This document shows positions 5,699 through 52,338 of a DNA stretch of 64,000 bases, piece after piece. The notes under the pieces were generated by a model that worked only from the letters and a program-made list of their open reading frames with translations, was not told where the DNA came from and searched no databases. The stretch is from contig JAWBMD010000003.1 in assembly GCA_039000985.1 (NCBI GenBank), forward strand, positions 5,979-69,978. The letters are read 5' to 3'. This DNA comes from Candidatus Aenigmatarchaeota archaeon (lineage in GTDB: Archaea > Aenigmatarchaeota > Aenigmatarchaeia > CG10238-14 > SpSt-28). Each line of letters opens with the position of its first letter. Position 1 is the first letter of the stretch. The translations under genes were made by a program, and so were the position numbers.

Positions 5699-5827
5699 GG
5701 GCCCGTAGCTCAGCATGGTAGAGCGGCTGAGGCTTTTGCCGCCGATGCTTTTAAGCTGCTGGGCTAAAAGCTTTGATATGTGAAAGAAGAAACCAGTAGG
5801 TCGCGGGTTCAAATCCCGCCGGGCCCA
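5699..5827 (+). tRNA. tRNA-Lys(UUU), apparently interrupted by two introns (about 17 nt at 5730-5746 and about 38 nt at 5755-5792 or the equivalent 37/38 position)
   Basis: Acceptor GGGCCCG/CGGGCCC, D arm GCTC-AGCATGGTA-GAGC, T arm GCGGG-TTCAAAT-CCCGC. A 74-nt cloverleaf with anticodon arm GCTGG-CTTTTAA-CCAGT appears only after removing the two blocks. Folded by hand only. Confidence 0.7.
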
Positions 5828-6070: not shown

Positions 6071-6583
6071 CTACTCCTTTAATACAATTAAATTTGACAT
6101 TCCTCTTCTCCTTCTTTCTATTAAACCCCTAATTTCTAACCTATCAAGAATTCTACTTATTTTGACTTTTGAAAACCCAGTTTTCGAAATAAGATCGCCT
6201 TGAAAAATTGATCCACCAGCTTCTATAACTAATTCGTAAATCTTCCTTTCATCACCTTGTAAAGTTTTAGATATATGCTTAAACTTTGTTAGTTCTCTAT
6301 TTGTTATTTGAACATGCTTTATCATTAACATCAAATATAAACTTACTATAATTAAAATAGACGAAAAAAACAATCCAATTACAGATTCTATGGGTAAAAC
6401 TCCCCTTTTAATCGGGCAAATTTCTGGTTCTAATGGACATTGTTTATGCAACTCTTCTCCATATTTCAGAACAGTTTGTGTCAATGAAAAAATAACAAAG
6501 ATTAAACCTATAGCAATTCCAGCAATTATTATTCCAACAATTTTCAAATTACCATAATTTCTCTGCATAAATTTAGATAGCAT
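6071..6583 (-). CDS. Membrane-bound winged-helix transcriptional regulator (MarR/ArsR-like C-terminus)
   Basis: Two TM helices flank a Cys-containing loop (HKQCPLEPEICP). C-terminal wHTH-like IYELVIEAGGSIFQGDLISKTGFSKVKISRILDRLEIRGLIERR. Confidence 0.65.
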   Translation of the reverse strand: MLSKFMQRNYGNLKIVGIIIAGIAIGLIFVIFSLTQTVLKYGEELHKQCPLEPEICPIKRGVLPIESVIGLFFSSILIIVSLYLMLMIKHVQITNRELTKFKHISKTLQGDERKIYELVIEAGGSIFQGDLISKTGFSKVKISRILDRLEIRGLIERRRRGMSNLIVLKE

Positions 6584-6713
6584 ATTTAGTTATTTCTAAG
6601 TTACAACTTTTATATTTTTTACACCATTCTTCACACTTTTCAGCCCAATGCCTTTCCTTGTATTTTAGTTTACATTCTTCGCAAACATAAAATTCATTTA
6701 TTTTCTTTACCAT
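6573..6713 (-). CDS. Small Cys-rich protein (46 aa), possible TRASH-like metal-binding protein; absent from the ORF track
   Basis: Hand translation gives MVKKINEFYVCEECKLKYKERHWAEKCEEWCKKYKSCNLEITKYAI (CxxC..CxxxC..C). Sits between the hemerythrin-like and regulator genes with short overlaps. Confidence 0.45.
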   Translation of the reverse strand: MVKKINEFYVCEECKLKYKERHWAEKCEEWCKKYKSCNLEITKYAI

Positions 6714-7189
6714 ACTTTCTACCTAATTCTTCATACCTTTCATATACACCTTTTCCAGTTTTTTCTTCAATTTTTTCAAATTCTTCTTTATCTTTTTTGT
6801 TCAAAACAGGATCAACTAGTGGGTATAAGATATTATTCTTTTTATCTATATGTTCTCTAAATAAAACAACAAAATCCTCCGCACTTTCTCTGAATTTTTT
6901 AAACTCTGCTTCTAACATAAATAATTTTCTCAATTAATAACATAACTACTATTTGTCCGCCTTCTTTTGGAATTCCTTCCACTTCAGCTAATGGAAATAA
7001 TGATTTTTCATCTTTCACATGATGACATTTATCTGCAAATTGGCTAAAGAACTCTAAAAGCTTTTTTACATCAGAATGTAGAACTTTATTTGGACTAAGC
7101 TTACTGAAAGATTCTAGGATCTTTAATCCTTCTATGATTACCCCATATTCTTCTTTTAATATCTCTGTCGGGTTTTCTACTTTCTCCAT
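6694..7189 (-). pseudogene. Hemerythrin-like (HHE cation-binding) gene split into two ORFs by a frameshift near 6930-6950
   Basis: ORF 6899..7189 carries the N-terminal half (FADKCHHVKDEKSLFP). ORF 6694..6933 carries the C-terminal half (FREHIDKKNNILYP) in another frame. Stops sit just upstream of the second ORF. Confidence 0.5.
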
Positions 7190-30393: not shown

Positions 30394-30491
30394 GCCGGTG
30401 TAGTTGAGCGGTTAAAACGCCACGCTCATATTGAATGAGCTTCGATAAATGAGATACGTGGAGGTCGAGGGTTCGAATCCCTCCACCGGCA
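30394..30491 (+). tRNA. Elongator tRNA-Met(CAU) (Ile2-CAU not excluded) with a 25-nt intron at 37/38 (30431-30455)
   Basis: GCCGGTG/CACCGGC acceptor. Anticodon arm CCACG-CTCATA[intron]A-CGTGG. Intron ATGAG pairs with exon CTCAT (BHB-like). T arm GAGGG-TTCGAAT-CCCTC. Confidence 0.85.
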
Positions 30492-30493
30492 AA

Positions 30494-30594
30494 GCCCCAG
30501 TAGCTCAGTTTGGATAGAGCGGCGCCCTTCTAATTTAGAAGGTTTGAAAAAAGATGAAAGGCGTAGGTCGCGGGTTCAAATCCCGCCTGGGGCA
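30494..30594 (+). tRNA. tRNA-Arg(UCU) with a 26-nt intron at 37/38 (30533-30558)
   Basis: GCCCCAG/CTGGGGC acceptor. Anticodon arm GCGCC-CTTCTA[intron]A-GGCGT. Intron TAGAAGG pairs with CCTTCTA. T arm GCGGG-TTCAAAT-CCCGC. Confidence 0.88.
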
Positions 30595-39098: not shown

Positions 39099-39764
39099 TT
39101 ATTTTTTATAAATTTTTATTTCATCAAAAAAATCATTTTGAATACAATCTATTAATCCTTTCTTATCTAAATGTAAAACTGGAACAAAATAACTTACTAT
39201 ATTTTCAACATTCCATTCATCAACTATTTCATCAAACAAAATAAATCCTTTATCTTTGCACAAATTAACTATTTTTTCATAAACATCATTCATTCTTTTT
39301 TCAAAATCCTTAGCTTGACCAATTCTTATTTCTATTTGTCTTCTTCTTTCCCAAATTCTTCTTTCCTTTTTCTCTTTTAGTTCAATAACTTTTTTTAAAG
39401 CAATTATTAAATCATTCAAAGTTATAGGACCTTTTGGAATTCTTCTAATAGGGCTTTCAACATAAACTTCAATTTTTTCTACTGTTTCAACTTTTTCCTC
39501 TTTTGTTACTTCCTCCTCTTCCTTCTTTCTATCCAAATATTCCACTTTTATTCTAAGCAAAATAGAAGCAACAAAAATAACTTTAGCCGGTATTCTGAAA
39601 TCCAACTCAACTACTTTATTCAAAAAATTTATAAAACCATTACAAAGTTTAACTAAATCTATATTCCATGGGTCTAAATTTTCTAAGCTAACAACATAAT
39701 AAATAATTTCTTCCCAGCTTTCTTTTTTTATTATTTCACTTATTATGTTTTCTTCCAATATCAT
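39099..39764 (-). CDS. scpA: Segregation and condensation protein A (kleisin)
   Basis: 221 aa, ScpA-like N- and C-terminal regions. ATGA overlap with the smc stop. Confidence 0.8.
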   Translation of the reverse strand: MILEENIISEIIKKESWEEIIYYVVSLENLDPWNIDLVKLCNGFINFLNKVVELDFRIPAKVIFVASILLRIKVEYLDRKKEEEEVTKEEKVETVEKIEVYVESPIRRIPKGPITLNDLIIALKKVIELKEKKERRIWERRRQIEIRIGQAKDFEKRMNDVYEKIVNLCKDKGFILFDEIVDEWNVENIVSYFVPVLHLDKKGLIDCIQNDFFDEIKIYKK

Positions 39765-42700
39765 TTTGGTAATTCCAAGCTTACTATTTTTGATTCCCCA
39801 TCTTCCATGCTTACTCCATATATATAATCAGCAAACTTAAGAGCTTCTTCGTTATGCGAAATAACTATGAATTGAGAATCTTTTGAAAATTCTTTAATGA
39901 CTTTCCAAATTAGTGTTGTGTTTTCTTTATCTAATGCTGCATCTATTTCATCAAACAAATAAAATAATGATGGTTTATATCTTTGAATAGCTAAAATAAA
40001 AGCTAAAGCTGTTACAGTTTTTTCTCCACCAGATAAAGAATCTATGTTAACAAGCTTTTTACCTGGAAAACTTGCTCTTATTAGTAAGCCGCTATCAATA
40101 TTATCCTTTTCCTCAAGCTCAAGAGAAGCCTCCCCACCATTAATCCTTTTAAATATTTCATTAAAATTGTTACTTATTGCATTTAATGTTGAAATAAAAA
40201 CTTCTTTTCTCCTTTTCTCTATTTCATCAATCATTTTTAAAACAGCATCCCTTTCTTCACTAATTTTTTTAAATTTCAAAAAAATTTCTTCATATTCAGC
40301 TTTAAATTTCTCTAGCTCTTCTTCTGCTCTAAAATTAATGGTACCCAAGCTTTCTATCTTATTTGAAACTACTTTTATTTCATTTTCTATTTCGTTCAAA
40401 CTTTTATTTACAAAAACAACATCTTTATATTGTTGCAACTCCATTCTAACATTTTCAAAATCACTTTCTACTTTACCTTTATGAAAATTCAACTTGTTTA
40501 TTTCATTTTGTAATTTGATTTTTTCTTCAATTAATTTCCTTCTTTTTTCTTTTAATGTTTCTAAAAGGATTGCAGAATTTTTTCTTAAGCTTTCTAAATT
40601 TTCCAAATCTTTACTTTCTTCTTTTGCTATTTCAAATTTAGATAATTCTTTTAAAATTTTTTCTCTTTCTTCTTTTAGTTTATTTAATTCCTCAATAGCT
40701 ATTTTTCTTTTTTCAATAAGCTCATCTATATTAAACTCTTTTTTCCACGATTTTTTAACTAAATAACCACCAGTTAAAGCACCACTTCTCTCTATTAAAT
40801 CACCATCTAATGTAACCATTCTAACTTCTCCAATTCCTATTTTTTCAACCGTATCTAAATCCTTAACAATTATTGTATTTCCAAATACAAATTCTATAGC
40901 ATTTCTAAATTTTTCATCAAATTTTAACAAATTGCTAGCAATACCGATATAACCATCTATGTTTTTAAATTTACTATCATCAATAACTTTACCCTTTATT
41001 TTATCTAATGGTAAAAATGTAGCTCTACCAATTTTATTATCTCTTAAATATTCTATACACAATCTAGCAATTTTAAAATCTTCAACAACTAAATCGTAAT
41101 AATGATTTGCGGCAGCTATCTCTATTGCATATTCTAATTCTCTAGGAAATTTAATTAAAGAAGATATAGTACCAAAAACTCCTCTCAAATTTAATTTTAA
41201 TACTGCTTTTACAGGAGAAGGAATTTCTTCTATTTGCTTAGCTTCAGCCCTCGCTATGCTTTCATTAATGTTTTCTATTTCTCTTTCTTTAATTGTTATT
41301 TTGCTTTCTATTATACTTAAAGAATTTTGTAGTTTAATATATTCTTTTTCTTTTTCTAAGTTTTTGTAAGCGTTATAAATTTTTTCACCAATATCTTTAA
41401 GCACATTTTCATTTTTCTCTATTTCTTGTTCTATTTTTTCACTTTCTTCTTCAATTTTCTTTTTCCTTTCTTCTAAAATATTCAAATTTTTTTCAATACT
41501 TTCTAAATTTTTTAATAAATATTCTTCTTTTTTCTTCCAATACGATGCTTTTAAAGTAATTAGAGTTTTTTGGAGAGATTTGTAAGTATCAGCTATTTCT
41601 TTCTCTCTTTTCAATTTTTCTAAAATTTGATTTTTTTGATTAACAACAATTTCAACCTCTTTTAATTTTTGATTAACAAATTCCAAATCTTTTAGAGCTT
41701 TCTCCTTTTTTTCATTATACTCGCTTATTCCACAAATTTCATCTATTATTGCTTTTCTCTCTAAAGGATTCATTTCTATTATGTTTGCAACATCTCCTTG
41801 CAAAACTATATTATGTCCATCTGGATAAATTCTTACTGAAGATAAAACTTGTAAGATTTTTTCTCTTGTTGTAGTAATACCATTAAGTTTATAAACAGTA
41901 AATCCCTTTCTATTTACTTTTCTTGTAATTGTTATTTCTTGAGAATCTTCACCAAATATTTTATTTGAGTTATCGAAAGCTATAGAAACAGAAGCAATTT
42001 CTGCAGGTTTTTTATTTGGTGAGCCATGAAAAATTAATTCAGATAATCTATCTGCACGCAAACTTTTTGCACTAGTTCTTCCTAGAACAAAGCAAATAGC
42101 ATCTATTATATTGCTATTATGAACAATAATGTTATTAGCAATAAAATTGTGAAAATCTTTTATGCACAAATCATAAACCCATTTCTTTTTGTTTTCTTGT
42201 TTAATTTCAACGATTTCATCCCAAAATATATCAGATTTAATAAGCAAGTTAGCTAAATTTTCATCAATATCTTCTAAATTTAAATTTATATCATTACAAT
42301 CTCTCAAAACAGCTATTTTTTCTCCAATCCTTAAATATTTTGATGGAATAGAAACTATTGAATTATTTCTTAAAACAAAAAATGGATGAGAATAAGTTAC
42401 GGTCAATTCTTTACCACTAGCTGTTATTATTTTCAATAATTTGCAATCTATTCTTTTTATAAATGCATCTATTTTTCTTTCCTCAACTTTCAAAGTAAAT
42501 GGATTTATAGAAAGAACTTTATAATTGTTTGGATTATCTATACAGAAAACCCCATCAGATAGTTTTTTTATTTCTGAGCAGTTTTTTAAAGATTCATCAA
42601 CAATTTCTTCAATAGTTTTATATTCCCAATTAGATAAAGCTACTAATGTATTACCATCAACACATTTACCACTTCCATTTGGTCCTGTTATAATAGTTAT

Positions 42701-42772
42701 ACCTTTTTTAAATGGAATAGATATTCTTTTATTAAAGCTTTTAAATCCTTGCAATGTTAACTTTGTTATCAT
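39761..42772 (-). CDS. smc: SMC chromosome-segregation ATPase, intein-containing precursor (about 820 aa after splicing)
   Basis: Walker A GPNGSGK|...|SNIIDAICFVLG interrupted by an intein. Long coiled coils, hinge region, signature LSGGEKT, Walker B LFDEIDAALD. Confidence 0.93.
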   Translation of the reverse strand: MITKLTLQGFKSFNKRISIPFKKGITIITGPNGSGKCVDGNTLVALSNWEYKTIEEIVDESLKNCSEIKKLSDGVFCIDNPNNYKVLSINPFTLKVEERKIDAFIKRIDCKLLKIITASGKELTVTYSHPFFVLRNNSIVSIPSKYLRIGEKIAVLRDCNDINLNLEDIDENLANLLIKSDIFWDEIVEIKQENKKKWVYDLCIKDFHNFIANNIIVHNSNIIDAICFVLGRTSAKSLRADRLSELIFHGSPNKKPAEIASVSIAFDNSNKIFGEDSQEITITRKVNRKGFTVYKLNGITTTREKILQVLSSVRIYPDGHNIVLQGDVANIIEMNPLERKAIIDEICGISEYNEKKEKALKDLEFVNQKLKEVEIVVNQKNQILEKLKREKEIADTYKSLQKTLITLKASYWKKKEEYLLKNLESIEKNLNILEERKKKIEEESEKIEQEIEKNENVLKDIGEKIYNAYKNLEKEKEYIKLQNSLSIIESKITIKEREIENINESIARAEAKQIEEIPSPVKAVLKLNLRGVFGTISSLIKFPRELEYAIEIAAANHYYDLVVEDFKIARLCIEYLRDNKIGRATFLPLDKIKGKVIDDSKFKNIDGYIGIASNLLKFDEKFRNAIEFVFGNTIIVKDLDTVEKIGIGEVRMVTLDGDLIERSGALTGGYLVKKSWKKEFNIDELIEKRKIAIEELNKLKEEREKILKELSKFEIAKEESKDLENLESLRKNSAILLETLKEKRRKLIEEKIKLQNEINKLNFHKGKVESDFENVRMELQQYKDVVFVNKSLNEIENEIKVVSNKIESLGTINFRAEEELEKFKAEYEEIFLKFKKISEERDAVLKMIDEIEKRRKEVFISTLNAISNNFNEIFKRINGGEASLELEEKDNIDSGLLIRASFPGKKLVNIDSLSGGEKTVTALAFILAIQRYKPSLFYLFDEIDAALDKENTTLIWKVIKEFSKDSQFIVISHNEEALKFADYIYGVSMEDGESKIVSLELPK
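42116..42664 (-). mobile_element. Mini-intein (183 aa) inserted in the SMC Walker A loop
   Basis: Starts with Cys (CVDGNTLV) right after GSGK. Block B TYSH; ends IVHN followed by Ser (+1). No endonuclease-sized insert or LAGLIDADG motif seen. Confidence 0.85.
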
Positions 42773-43867: not shown

Positions 43868-43893
43868 TATGGTGATCCAGCCGCACGTTCCCG

Positions 43894-43980
43894 TTGCCTG
43901 ATATGTGGAAATCTCGTTTCACCATAAATTCTTCATCGCTCAGAATCAACCCAAGCTTTCATTATTTTTTCCACATATCT
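43894..43980 (-). other. 87-nt insertion in the 5' strand of 16S helix 45 (putative intron)
   Basis: Splits CCGTA|CGGGAACGTGCGG. The ends form a 12-bp stem, GATATGTGGAAA/TTTCCACATATC. Confidence 0.65.
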
Positions 43981-44396
43981 TACGGCTACCTTGTGACGAC
44001 TTACCCCCCCTCGCAGAGGTTCTACTCGACTATTTCTTCAATAGCCTTGTAGAACCTCTACTCGGTTGGGTTGACGGGCAGTGTGAGCAAAGGACAGGGA
44101 CGTATTCAGCGAACGTTAGTGACGTCCGCTTACTAGGGATTCCAGCTTCACGAGGGCGAGTTACAACCCTCGATCTGAACTGAGCACGCTTTTTAGGGAT
44201 TTGCTCTCCCTTTCGGGTTCGCATCCCATTGTAGCGTGCATTGTGTCGCGCGTGTAGCCCAGCGCAATAGGGGCATACGGACTTCGACCAGCTAGAGAGC
44301 ATTTATTAAACTTTTCATGTCTTCAAAAATTTTATCAAAAGCTTGAAGTTCTTCGCGATTAAAACTATCTAATTTTCTCTTAGTTTCTATTAGTCC

Positions 44397-44726
44397 TCAA
44401 ACTTTAATCATTGGAAAATTGAATTTAATTTTGAATCCTTGAAAAGCCAATTTTTGAATTTGTTCTTTTATTTCTCTTTTTGAGAAGGAATTTATTTCTT
44501 TGCATTCTATCACTATGTTACTGTCAGGTAAGAAAAAGTCAACTATAAGATTTTCTTTGAGTGGAAAGTTAACATGGAACCCAATATTCTTCTCCGATAG
44601 CGCTTTCTCCAGTAATCTCTCTTGTGGTGCACGTCTCTTTTTGAGACTTTCTATAGCTCCTTTTCTTCTTGCTTTTTGTGCTGCATAACTTTTTCCATGT
44701 ACTTTAAACCATTCGATAGCTTCCAT
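44397..44726 (-). CDS. PD-(D/E)XK (Vsr/DUF559-like) nuclease encoded in the 16S intron; candidate homing endonuclease
   Basis: 109 aa. ERLLEKALSEKNIGFHVNFPLKENLIVDFFLPDSNIVIECKE gives D...ExK spacing as in DUF559/Vsr-fold nucleases. The TGA stop is followed by 34 more in-frame codons. Confidence 0.6.
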   Translation of the reverse strand: MEAIEWFKVHGKSYAAQKARRKGAIESLKKRRAPQERLLEKALSEKNIGFHVNFPLKENLIVDFFLPDSNIVIECKEINSFSKREIKEQIQKLAFQGFKIKFNFPMIKV

Positions 44727-44766
44727 CTGAGATTTCTAAATCTATTTATTACTTCAGATAAAATTA

Positions 44767-44949
44767 CTACCCGCATTCTACTCTGAATTTTATTAACCAA
44801 TTTTCTGCAGTTTTAAATTGCATTGTTTTTATTTTACCTAACTCGTACTTGTTGATATTTTTGGAAGGACTTCCTACGAATTTCTCAAACTCATTTTGTG
44901 ATAATCCTAATGCTAACCTTAATATCAATAGTTTTTGAGGGTTTAACAT
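44767..44949 (-). CDS. XRE-type helix-turn-helix protein encoded in the 16S intron
   Basis: 60 aa. LILRLALGLSQNEFEKFVGSPSKNINKYELGK fits the Cro/C1 HTH pattern. Lies upstream of the nuclease ORF on the rRNA sense strand. Confidence 0.55.
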   Translation of the reverse strand: MLNPQKLLILRLALGLSQNEFEKFVGSPSKNINKYELGKIKTMQFKTAENWLIKFRVECG

Positions 44950-45200
44950 TAGAATTTCTGGAGAAATCTCCGTAAAGTTTTTGTTTCTATCTTTACTTCT
45001 TTAAAGAGTTTTCTTATTTTATCCTCTGGAATTATAGTTTTTGGTATATATATTATACTGATGTACGACCATTTAAATCTTACTGACCAACTCTCTAGCT
45101 GTCTACCGTCGCCCACACCTTCCTCCCACTTATCGCGGGCAGTCTCCCATGAGTGCCTCCTTTCTTTCGAAAGGAGTAGCAACATGGGATGTGGGTCTCG

Positions 45201-45231
45201 CTTCAACCCTGACCAGAAATACTCTGGTCAA
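45201..45231 (-). other. About 31-nt hairpin insertion in the 16S 1100 region
   Basis: Splits the conserved AACGA|GCGAGACCC block. Forms TGACCAGA..TCTGGTCA. Confidence 0.45.
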
Positions 45232-45239
45232 GTTCGTTA

Positions 45240-45271
45240 GTCTCATCAAGCTATTTTTGCTCGATGATTTA
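45240..45271 (-). other. About 32-nt hairpin insertion in the 16S 1090 region
   Basis: Lies between GTCAAGTCGG and CTAACGA. Forms TCATCGAGC..GCTTGATGA. Confidence 0.45.
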
Positions 45272-45566
45272 ACCGACTTGACGGCACGCCTCACGGTACG
45301 AGCTGACGGTGGCCATGCACCACCGCTCGGCTTGTCTGGTAAGCCCTTCAGACTGACCATCATCCTGCCGTCTGCGCTGGTAAGATTTCCGGTGTCGAAT
45401 CCAATTGAACCGCACGACCCACCCCTTGTGTGTCCTCCCGCCAATTCCCTTAAGTTTCATCCTTTCGGACGTACTCCCCAGGCGGCCCACTTAACACCTT
45501 CGCTCCGGCACAGGGTACTCCCAAGGAGTACCCCACACCAAGTGGGCATCGTTTACGCCCAGGACT

Positions 45567-45646
45567 TTCCCGCGCAGATGGGGAGCAGTTCATTTCTCAA
45601 AGGATTAGATATTCTTCATATAATCAGAAGATACTCCCAACCACGC
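45567..45646 (-). other. 80-nt insertion in the 16S 785-805 region (putative intron)
   Basis: Splits GGATTAGATACCCCGGT|AGTCCTGGGCGTAAACGATG. Confidence 0.65.
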
Positions 45647-45727
45647 ACCGGGGTATCTAATCCCGATCGCTCCCCTGGGTTTCGTCCCTCACCGTCCGGA
45701 CTGTTCCAGGCAGCCGCCTTCGCCACT

Positions 45728-45924
45728 CACCCAACAGAGGTCGGCTTAAAAAAGACTGTTAGGAGTTTCTCTATAAAAAATAAAAACGTTGTTTTCTTTT
45801 TTCCAAGTAAATTATTTGGCAACTCCTCTAAAAATTGTATTTTTTTTATTGTTAGAATTTCAATAAGTCTTTTAGTCAAAGCTCGAAGCGACTATAATTA
45901 TTGACCGCCAACACTCTGCTGACT
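45728..45924 (-). other. About 197-nt AT-rich insertion in the 16S ~720 region (putative intron)
   Basis: Splits GGACCACCAGT|GGCGAAGGCGGCTGCC. The junction is ambiguous by 3 nt (ACT repeat). No intact ORF. Confidence 0.65.
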
Positions 45925-46238
45925 GGTGGTCCCCATAGGATTAACGGATTTAACCCCTACCCTATGGGTACCGCTGCCCTCTCCCAGCCGCTAGACTAGC
46001 AGTATCTCCCCCAAGCTCACCAGTTTACTGGTGAATTTCAAGGGAGACTTACTAGTCCGGCTACGAACGCTTTAGGCCCAATATTCGTGCTCACCACTTG
46101 GGGCGCGGGTCTTACCGTGGCAGCTGGCACCCGTCTTGCCCACCCCTTATTCGCCCAACCGTTAACATTGGGCAAAAGCTCCTTACCAAAAGGTAAGAAG
46201 CACTCCGGCTACCCTCATCGGGCGTTAACCCATTGTGA

Positions 46239-46273
<35 letters not shown>

Positions 46274-46477
46274 CTCATGTCTCAGAGTCCATCTGGGGGC
46301 TCCCACTTCCATGGCCCCTACCCGTTATAGCCTTGTGGAGCTATTACCTCCACAACAAGCTGATAGGGGATAGTCTCATCCTCGAGCGGCTTCGAACGCC
46401 CCTTTGATATGGAGACATTCCAGTACTCCATATCTATGGGGTATTAGCCCCAGTTTCCCGGGATTATCCCCTTCGAG

Positions 46478-46512
46478 CCAAAAGTGATAGAAATCACTTA
46501 TGGTCTCTCGAG
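46478..46512 (-). other. About 35-nt hairpin insertion near 16S position ~135 (mini-intron or expansion)
   Basis: Lies between duplicated TCGAG pentamers. Forms the hairpin ACCATAAGTGAT..ATCACTTTTGG. Confidence 0.45.
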
Positions 46513-46635
46513 GGTAGATTAACTACCCATTACGCAGCAGTACGCCGAGGGCTTGCCCCTCACGGCTTGCATGGCTTAGTCGTAGCCGGATAGCAGTGAG
46601 CTCTGGTGGGATCAACCAGCATCGAGAATGGCGGG

Positions 46636-52209: not shown

Positions 52210-52220
52210 TTTTTAAAAGT

Positions 52221-52338
52221 GCTAGGGACTTCATGGATTTCCCGAGCAAAGATGCTCAGTACTCTCCATATCTCCGAGGAGCTTAACTTCTGTGTTCGGG
52301 ATGGGAACAGGTGTTTCCTCCCCGATTTGGTCCCCAGC
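52221..52338 (-). rRNA. rrf: 5S rRNA
   Basis: Minus strand reads GCTGGGGAC...CCCATCCCGAACACAGAAGTTAAGC...GGAGAGTACTGAGC...GTCCCTAGC. The terminal 9-bp helix I closes. GC-rich island in AT-rich DNA. Confidence 0.88.

Follow-up and report, generated by a model that had tools for sequence, protein, structure and literature searches.

The DNA analyzed here, referred to as the window, comprises 64,000 nucleotides (nt) of contig JAWBMD010000003.1 from a Candidatus Aenigmatarchaeota archaeon (assembly GCA_039000985.1, positions 5,979 to 69,978 of the forward strand). Its 16S rRNA gene is interrupted by an 820-nt insert, which is an archaeal bulge-helix-bulge (BHB), i.e., protein-spliced, intron. Two small open reading frames (ORFs) on the sense strand of the intron, one of 60 amino acids (aa; 44767..44949) and one of 109 aa (44397..44726), are, to judge from their alignment with longer proteins, broken pieces of a single gene of ~255 aa. 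On the best reading, this gene is a decayed copy of a new family of homing endonucleases of archaeal rRNA introns that is not of the LAGLIDADG type. The complete account, in which the BHB intron carries the decayed copy of a single-gene, site-specific homing endonuclease with a helix-turn-helix (HTH) region and a PD-(D/E)XK domain, is considered likely.

A protein family at one site of archaeal 16S rRNA genes

In exhaustive HMMER/phmmer searches, the 109-aa ORF aligned end to end with residues ~110 to 217 of ~20 proteins, mostly 250 to 260 aa in length, at 32 to 53% identity; word-indexed searches of 5.8 billion proteins with each ORF retrieved only the ORFs themselves. The family was gathered by profile search (25 clusters), followed by scans of GTDB genomes and JGI metagenomes, and the locus scans used alignment A3, which is narrower than alignment A2. 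Every member with enough flanking DNA was located inside an archaeal 16S rRNA gene on the sense strand, and the insertion position in the gene was the same in all 18 loci examined, the window and 17 others. Over these 18 loci, the 5' junction reads ACG(G/A)(U/C)A(G/C)^A(C/U)... and the 3' junction ...(G/A)(C/U)CG(A/U)(A/U)^GUC(N)G(U/C)AU, where ^ marks the splice site. The named hosts are two Micrarchaeota, Parvarchaeota, a metagenome-assembled genome (MAG) labelled Hadarchaeota, and the Aenigmatarchaeota of the window. Two loci are filed under bacteria, L002 (JBDRYJ010000146.1) in a 'candidate division WOR-3 bacterium' MAG and L017 (CAYOOO010000039.1) in an 'uncultured Gammaproteobacteria bacterium' MAG; these short rRNA contigs have probably been binned wrongly. 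The viral contigs searched contained no relatives.

The ORFs of 15 other loci were checked, and 14 of them are intact, with a length of 245 to 263 aa; the ORF of the remaining locus, L014, runs ~22 codons into exon 2. An intact ORF begins at intron nt ~45 to 78 and fills the rest of the intron; its stop codon is either a TGA 5 nt short of the 3' splice site or lies 15 nt downstream of that site, in exon 2. In six loci (L007, L009, L016, L022, L027, and L014), the intron ORF has no stop codon inside the intron. Apart from L014, these ORFs end 15 to 16 nt into exon 2, four of them with the residues EVSM(L/P), and the full-length protein of the six loci is not translatable from the excised linear intron as such. 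The ratio of nonsynonymous to synonymous substitution rates (dN/dS) was 0.13 for the pair L007/L022 and 0.09 for the pair L013/L019, which indicates purifying selection on the intact genes. Just downstream of the intron-bearing 16S rRNA gene of Micrarchaeota RBG_16_49_10 (L005, MFRS01000021.1), a LAGLIDADG_3 ORF is located at 6221..6856; both kinds of intron-type nuclease genes thus occur in the same rRNA region.

The homologues share an MPxT.. start, an HTH at residues ~40 to 85, an invariant ESxGWF motif near residue 110, the series QE...VD...IECK...LAYQGYK, and a C-terminal tail. The earlier note on this DNA, made from the letters alone, had read the 60-aa ORF as an XRE-type HTH and the 109-aa ORF as a protein of restriction-endonuclease type with a VD...IECK core, and both assignments are supported. 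The 60-aa ORF matched the Pfam model HTH_3 with E = 3e-4 (21.2 bits), just below the gathering cutoff of 23 bits, which the intact homologue P0004 passes (PF01381, 24.6 bits); among the 24 members searched, 12 matched HTH_3 at E ≤ 1, the best with E = 1.8e-05. The nuclease part gave fainter matches, all of them below the Pfam cutoffs: DpnII-MboI for the 109-aa ORF (E = 0.004) and for 3 of the 24 members, and DUF559 for 6 of the 24 (best E = 0.002), with P0004 reaching 17.6 bits (PF04480, E = 0.0035) against a gathering cutoff of 20.6 bits. Member P0025 matched a 'homing endonuclease' family of PHROG at 3e-4. Nothing besides the HTH was found with NCBIfam and PADLOC, and no nuclease was matched among the PDB chain sequences, whether the query was the ORF alone or the family profile. 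The Pfam models LAGLIDADG_1/2/3 matched neither the intron ORFs of both strands nor the reconstructed protein nor any of the 24 members, in line with the earlier note, which saw no LAGLIDADG motif in any frame of this large 16S intron. Homologues of the ~255-aa gene cover intron nt 56 to 808, which leaves no room for another gene.

An AlphaFold model of P0004, the member from Micrarchaeota RBG_16_49_10, built with a 24-sequence alignment, had a mean predicted local distance difference test score (pLDDT) of 84.9 and a predicted template modeling score (pTM) of 0.50, with the last 115 residues above 90. The C-terminal core of the model consists of helix 142-153, strands 159-163, 169-174, and 179-186, helix 191-211, and strand 216-223, i.e., alpha-beta-beta-beta-alpha-beta. 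Helix 142-153 bears E144, and D171 and E182-x-K184 are located on strands 2 and 3, respectively. As modeled, the C-terminal domain has the PD-(D/E)XK layout. Both subfamilies, the main subgroup and the Q-C-R(K) subfamily introduced below, have E144 and D171 without exception, and IECK/ExK is nearly invariant in the main subgroup; no histidine of the nuclease domain is invariant or nearly so in alignments A1, A2, and A3. A single-sequence AlphaFold model of the 109-aa ORF was discarded (pLDDT 46). The structural comparison proposed in the earlier note was run on P0004, with the whole two-domain model as the Foldseek query, and the top matches were dominated by PD-(D/E)XK, Vsr, and DUF559 nucleases. 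Ranks 1 to 16 in the PDB were all PD-(D/E)XK nucleases (Can2, BstEII, Ecl18kI, Mus81, Card1, and Cdn1), with the small subunit of R.BspD6I, Hjc, and AF1548 at lower ranks. In BFVD, a 256-aa phage 'HTH_XRE domain containing protein' ranked first (E = 1e-4), and many of the other top-50 entries are named 'DNA mismatch endonuclease' (Vsr), 'DUF559', 'endonuclease-like', or 'restriction enzyme', with probabilities of 0.97 to 1.00.

The leaders of the intact introns have a common order of elements, namely GGTC(A/C)GTAA, a TTTAAAT/TTTATAT box, (T)AGGTC(A/C)GTAT, and, 5 to 15 nt further on, the ATG. In L013, a hand count puts the start of the TATA-like box 27 nt before the ATG. Such spacing suggests a promoter for an archaeal leaderless mRNA, internal to the intron. 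The second motif, (T)AGGTCAGTAT, follows the TATA-like box, precedes the ATG, and is similar to the junction of the spliced exons. When the spliced 13-mer junction of each locus was compared with its own sense strand, the best match fell at intron nt 32 to 46 in 11 of 16 loci, with 10 to 12 of 13 identities in 10 of these (L005, L012, L013, L016, L017, L019, L020, L024, L025, and L028) and 9 of 13 in the window copy; in five loci, the observed match was reached by 0 of 200 shuffles. By eye, the first leader motif also pairs with the coding region at its 3' end, which extends h', the 11-bp helix of the splicing motif described below. Judged by its sequence, the junction-like motif could act as an operator or as an RNA mimic, and by analogy with I-TevI, it could hypothetically serve autoregulation through a target look-alike at the gene's own promoter.

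Like a homing gene, the family is intron-encoded, tied to one conserved site, spread over divergent hosts, and present in degenerate copies, those of the window and of its sister strain L029. The intact family is thus probably an undescribed type of archaeal homing endonuclease. The window intron once held a single gene, encoding a ~255-aa protein with an N-terminal helical region that includes an XRE-type HTH, an ESxGWF linker, and a C-terminal PD-(D/E)XK (Vsr/DUF559-like) domain with E...D...ExK. In the proposed mechanism, the HTH region would recognize intron-less 16S DNA, the PD-(D/E)XK domain would cut the intron-less site, and repair would copy the intron into the cut allele. Once the intron is fixed, the gene would decay, as in the gain-degeneration-loss cycle of homing genes, which PMC11270868 cites. 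A wider proposal goes further: the ~255-aa XRE-HTH and PD-(D/E)XK proteins would be the first non-LAGLIDADG homing family of archaeal BHB introns, specific for helix 34 at ~1197 across DPANN and other archaea, with the gene possibly driven by an internal leaderless promoter, an operator-like motif that copies the intron-less target and would allow I-TevI-style autorepression, and the window representing a late, decaying stage. The chances of this wider proposal are judged to be even.

Several points weigh against the homing endonuclease. No curated nuclease model was passed by any family member, and the best Foldseek E values were only 3e-3 (PDB) and 1e-4 (BFVD), modest because the whole two-domain model with its pTM of 0.50 was searched. 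A comparison of exon with intron identities gave no sign of horizontal transfer in either direction of argument, because the global nucleotide identities saturate near 0.7 to 0.75. A sizeable subfamily (P0018-like, ~260 aa, intact ORFs) occupies the same 16S site with Q-C-R(K) in place of E-C-K, and its members either manage without canonical catalysis or have an altered active site. For every family member, nuclease activity and homing are putative. The Q-C-R(K) subfamily comprises L036, L037, P0018, P0021, P0029-P0034, and P0036-P0041, and its hosts are G+C-richer archaea with linked 16S and 23S rRNA genes.

The intact family could instead consist of XRE-type DNA- or RNA-binding regulators with a degenerate nuclease-like domain, acting as autoregulators or as factors for rRNA or intron expression, and the window copy would still be a pseudogene. 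HTH_3 as the only model passed, the JGI name 'transcriptional regulator with XRE-family HTH domain' given to several members, the intact Q-C-R(K) ORFs without canonical ExK, and the operator-like layout of two GGTCAGTA-type leader motifs around the TATA-like box would all suit such regulators. We nevertheless regard this explanation as unlikely, since E144 and D171 are retained in both subfamilies and ExK is kept almost throughout the main one, since a single rRNA site in very divergent hosts together with a decaying copy fits a homing gene better than a host regulator, and since autoregulation and endonuclease activity coexist in I-TevI (PMC3943268).

One decayed gene in the window intron

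When homologues P0003, P0022, and P0024 were compared with the window intron by tblastn, residues 1 to 252 were covered in four frame-shifted pieces (Table 1). An ATA stands at 45045..45047 where the homologues have ATG, and the conserved ESNGWF motif is restored only by joining piece 3 to piece 4. Further on, an in-frame TGA at 44397..44399 replaces a Trp codon, after which the frame runs on as GLIETKRKLDSFNREELQAFDKIFEDMKSLINAL and ends at a TAG inside the 3' junction helix. The lesions of the window copy are thus an ATG-to-ATA change of the start codon, three frameshifts, and one premature in-frame TGA.

Neither decoding nor assembly explains these lesions. A reading of TGA as Trp was rejected, as TGA is a genuine stop codon in the window genome, where it ends 19 of 50 long ORFs, operon-internal ones included. 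Sequencing error was rejected as well: three independent assemblies (L001, L002, and L003) agree on every base of the intron, which speaks against a fault of any single assembly behind the frame breaks, and the three downstream lesions, namely the frameshift after the HTH, the frameshift inside ESNGWF, and the TGA, recur in the sister strain L029, the sequence of which is 99.3% identical over 3 kb. In its N-terminal part, L029 has two additional indels, a 1-nt deletion and a 4-nt insertion.

Both ORFs described in the earlier note are present, and both start with ATG. The four-piece coverage and the lesions identify them as remnants of one decayed gene and not as a two-protein system; the split pair of HTH protein and nuclease that had been put forward as a new arrangement is thereby not supported. 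That the ORFs might be frame-broken debris, also raised there, is true of the window copy, but the gene is intact and conserved in related genomes.

It is very unlikely that the 60-aa and 109-aa ORFs are two functional proteins forming a split homing enzyme. They are indeed open and on the sense strand, the 109-aa ORF still contains the catalytic-type residues QE, VD, and IECK, and in L029, the two additional indels rejoin the N-terminal region and the HTH in one 111-aa ATG-started frame, a possible sign that the HTH part is still used. However, the 109-aa ORF ends at the TGA within the fourth core beta-strand and lacks ~35 C-terminal residues of the high-confidence domain, a frameshift splits the linker with the invariant ESxGWF motif, and all three L029 substitutions inside the 109-aa ORF are nonsynonymous. 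Nor is a split arrangement seen elsewhere, as a single long ORF is present in 14 of the 15 other loci, and the ORF of L014 reads into exon 2. As pieces of a single decayed gene, the two ORFs are most likely non-functional.

Intron boundaries, splicing motif, and genomic surroundings

The Rfam model RF01959 (archaeal small-subunit rRNA) aligned with 43961..46622 on the minus strand, 2662 nt against 1478 model positions, and an 847-nt block was left without alignment where the model has 17 positions (~1106 to ~1124). On the rRNA strand, the insert is bordered by ...GGGCGACGGUAG^ACAGCUAGAGAG... on the 5' side and by ...CUCUCUAGCUGGUCGAA^GUCCGUAUGCCCC on the 3' side, and the intron likewise starts with ACAGCUAGAGAGUUGGUCAGUAAG and ends with AAUGCUCUCUAGCUGGUCGAA. 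Excision of 45102..44283 gives GACGGUAG-GUCCGUAUGCCCC, which fits the RF01959 archaeal consensus ACGgcAGGuCAGcaugCCCC; the intron therefore extends from 45102 down to 44283, the very boundaries and length of ~820 nt already given in the earlier note. The predicted spliced junction is GACGGUAG-GUCCGUAUG, the predicted intron-circle junction is GGUCGAA-ACAGCUAG, and the intron-less 16S site reads ...GGGCGACGGTAGGTCAGTATGCC... with the insertion point GGAAGGAGCGGGCGACGGTAG^GTCAGTATGCCCCGAAT. We place the insertion in helix 34, on its 3' strand, after about Escherichia coli 16S position 1197 (numbered via C1192 and m2G1207). The ~1197 site is missing from the compiled 16S intron loci of Thermoproteales and relatives, which are 374, 548, 722, 781, 803, 901, 908, 919, 978, 1093, 1205, 1213, and 1391 (PMC4496867).

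The splicing motif was assessed by counting pairs in mini-constructs of both junctions from the 16 loci in which both are mapped. In the central 4-bp helix, 100% of cells were paired; exon CGGU or CGAU stands opposite intron GUCG, GCCG, ACCG, or AUCG, and one pair shows G-C, A-U, and G-U types. The 11-nt complementary segments that had been noticed next to both junctions are real and form the h' helix of the BHB motif, with 90.9% of cells paired and compensatory changes at 11 of 11 pairs. For the whole BHB model, 87.5% of cells were paired, compared to 68% in column shuffles and 21 to 46% with slid partners. Two 3-nt bulges on opposite strands flank the central helix (AG^A and AA^G in the window).

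The cut sites are fixed in a homologous intron by L010 (JGI 3300016702), a 948-nt contig that is permuted relative to L009 3277..4116: it opens with the final 45 nt of the L009 intron, continues directly with nucleotide 1 of the same intron, and then contains the entire intron and exon 2. Its junction, GGCCGAA^ACAGCUG, matches exactly the predicted cut sites of the L009 intron. This single contig looks like a read through a circularized intron, its junction being the one expected if each bulge is cut 3' of its second nucleotide. In the window organism, the host tRNA-splicing endonuclease would accordingly be expected to cut in the two bulges, and a ligase would then join the exons and circularize the intron.

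On the other side stands the outer exon-exon helix h, which has only ~2 bp with 58% of cells paired in the 16 loci, and the motif is therefore of the relaxed HBh' type, which is cleaved by broad-specificity splicing endonucleases (PMC5829648). The minimum free energy fold of the window junctions alone kept h' and preferred a different outer pairing; this alternative, GAC/GUC plus ACGG/CCGU, was rejected, as it is not conserved in the other loci. Splicing in the window organism is deduced from this motif, and its intron RNA, with the motif intact, can presumably still be spliced. It is very unlikely that the insert is an intervening sequence or expansion that is kept or excised without ligation, or a group I or II intron: the weak outer helix, the sequence-only basis for splicing in this organism, and the many kinds of insertions in DPANN and CPR rRNA genes (PMC11270868, PMC6125680) would permit it, but the insertion interrupts a functionally critical strand of helix 34, the central helix and h' covary strongly with a 3-nt bulge on either side, the circular junction in L010 coincides exactly with the cut sites predicted for the homologous intron, and neither group I, group II, nor any other Rfam family matched 44250..45140 even at E ≤ 1. 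Across the whole window, no intron ribozyme model reached its Rfam gathering threshold.

Table 1. Features of the 16S rRNA gene, its BHB intron, and the decayed gene, in window coordinates (^ marks a splice site)
Feature	Position	Strand	Basis or remark
16S rRNA gene with at least 5 insertions	43871..46622	minus	RF01959, 1020 bits over 43961..46622
820-nt BHB intron	44283..45102	minus	Rfam alignment, junctions common to 16 loci, BHB covariation
Central BHB helix, exon strand CGGU	45105..45108	minus	Pairs with GUCG at 44285..44288
5' bulge AG^A, 5' splice site between 45103 and 45102	45102..45104	minus	Cut inferred from the L010 junction
h' helix, 5' strand CAGCUAGAGAG	45091..45101	minus	11 bp with 44289..44299
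Leader motif GGTCAGTAA	45080..45088	minus	Arrangement conserved in leaders of 15 related introns
TATA-like box ATTTAAAT	45071..45078	minus	Arrangement conserved in leaders of 15 related introns
Degraded second leader motif GTACATCAGTATA	45054..45066	minus	9/13 to spliced exon junction
Pseudogene piece 1, residues 1-22 (IPKTIIPEDKIRKLFKEVKIET)	44982..45047	minus	tblastn frame 2, intron nt 56-121
Pseudogene piece 2, residues ~19-82, XRE-type HTH	44767..44994	minus	tblastn frame 1, nt 109-300, 59-62% identity; holds the 60-aa ORF
Pseudogene piece 3, linker residues ~83-113 (..VILSEVINRFRNLRWKLSNG)	44708..44803	minus	Weak tblastn match, frame 3, nt ~300-395, E = 0.002
Pseudogene piece 4, residues ~106-252, PD-(D/E)XK-like domain	44295..44735	minus	tblastn frame 2, nt 368-808, 50-55% identity; holds the 109-aa ORF
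h' helix, 3' strand CUCUCUAGCUG	44289..44299	minus	Overlaps the original stop TAG at 44292..44294
Central BHB helix, intron strand GUCG	44285..44288	minus	Pair count, 16 loci
3' bulge AA^G, 3' splice site between 44283 and 44282	44282..44284	minus	Junctions, pair count, and L010

The 16S rRNA gene contains further insertions. Its true 3' end (..GCGGCUGGAUCACC) lies near 43871, and the Rfam alignment stops short at 43961 because of an insert of ~87 nt at 43894..43980 (minus strand), the ends of which form an 11-bp inverted repeat, AUAUGUGGAAA/UUUCCACAUAU. This insert is presumably located after E. coli position ~1513 in helix 45. Three others, all on the minus strand and richer in A+T than the exons, are one of ~197 nt at ~45717..45921 (model position ~664), one of ~80 nt at ~45574..45654 after GGAUUAGAUA (~E. 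coli 790-800), and one of ~66 nt at ~45211..45277 at GUCAA/GGGUUGA (~E. coli 1090).

The host genome has a G+C content of 28.5%, and its TopoVI-B and L11 proteins have identical counterparts filed at NCBI under Candidatus Aenigmatarchaeota archaeon. A 5S rRNA gene is located at 52220..52338, ~5.6 kb from the 16S rRNA gene with protein genes between them, and no 23S rRNA gene is present within the window; the rRNA genes are thus unlinked here. The tRNA genes detected with Rfam at 5699..5827, 30394..30491, and 30494..30594 are 129, 98, and 101 nt long, respectively, far longer than mature tRNA, and therefore probably contain introns; the 129-nt gene was missed by ARAGORN. A 1003-aa SMC-family ORF (39761..42772, minus strand) has a Pfam Intein_splicing match between two SMC_N matches and may hold an intein or an intein remnant.

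Significance and comparison with known systems

The homing genes described so far in archaeal rRNA introns are of the LAGLIDADG type (PMC4496867, PMC6125680, PMC3943268), the only one listed in surveys of these introns (PMC4496867, PMC6125680), and rRNA insertions of CPR bacteria encode LAGLIDADG or GIY-YIG proteins (PMC11270868). No description of an HTH and PD-(D/E)XK protein in archaeal rRNA introns was found in the searchable literature. If the homing reading is true, a second, unrelated nuclease family would use the same host-spliced kind of intron, confined to one helix site of the decoding region, and BHB introns would have been colonized independently by different selfish nucleases, as group I introns were. 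It would also add a small modular nuclease scaffold, probably with a long target, and account for a recurrent ~0.8-kb insertion in DPANN genomes that interferes with binning, primer binding, and the recovery of 16S sequences. The window copy itself is an ordinary end stage, a pseudogene inside a presumably still-spliceable intron.

The archaeal BHB rRNA introns with LAGLIDADG genes, such as those of I-DmoI, I-PorI, and I-PogI (PMC4496867), are likewise protein-spliced, ~0.8 kb in length, and located at conserved rRNA sites; their ORF also fills nearly the whole intron, intact and remnant copies occur among lineages, and the excised intron is circular, as the L010 junction suggests for a member of the present family. 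In contrast to these, the protein described here is of HTH and PD-(D/E)XK-like type without a LAGLIDADG domain, the site at ~1197 is outside the listed loci, and the hosts are mainly DPANN and not Crenarchaeota.

I-Ssp6803I, encoded in a group I intron of a cyanobacterial tRNA-fMet gene (PMC3943268), shares the PD-(D/E)XK motif, the location in an intron, and a stable-RNA gene as the target. It gave no sequence match in the PDB chain search and was outside the top 50 Foldseek matches in the PDB; the enzyme itself is compact and multimerizing, has no separate HTH domain, and belongs to a bacterial self-splicing intron.

The autorepressor I-TevI (PMC3943268) is likewise a modular nuclease with an HTH-containing DNA-binding region, and a look-alike of its homing site lies at its own promoter; in the present family, (T)AGGTCAGTAT matches the junction in 10 to 12 of 13 positions in 10 of 16 loci. 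I-TevI differs in its GIY-YIG nuclease, opposite domain order, and phage group I intron.

I-Bth0305I, an enzyme of the EDxHD/Vsr-like group (PMC3239194, PMC2677866), has the same domain order, with an N-terminal HTH-type binding region and a C-terminal Vsr-related nuclease, and likewise resides inside an intron of ~800 nt; the BFVD matches of the present family include phage 'DNA mismatch endonuclease' and DUF559 proteins. The EDxHD signature and the conserved histidine are absent from the present family, the motif of which is E...D...ExK. Its HTH is of the XRE type and not NUMOD, and its carrier is an archaeal rRNA BHB intron, in contrast to the group I introns and inteins of phage or bacterial protein genes.

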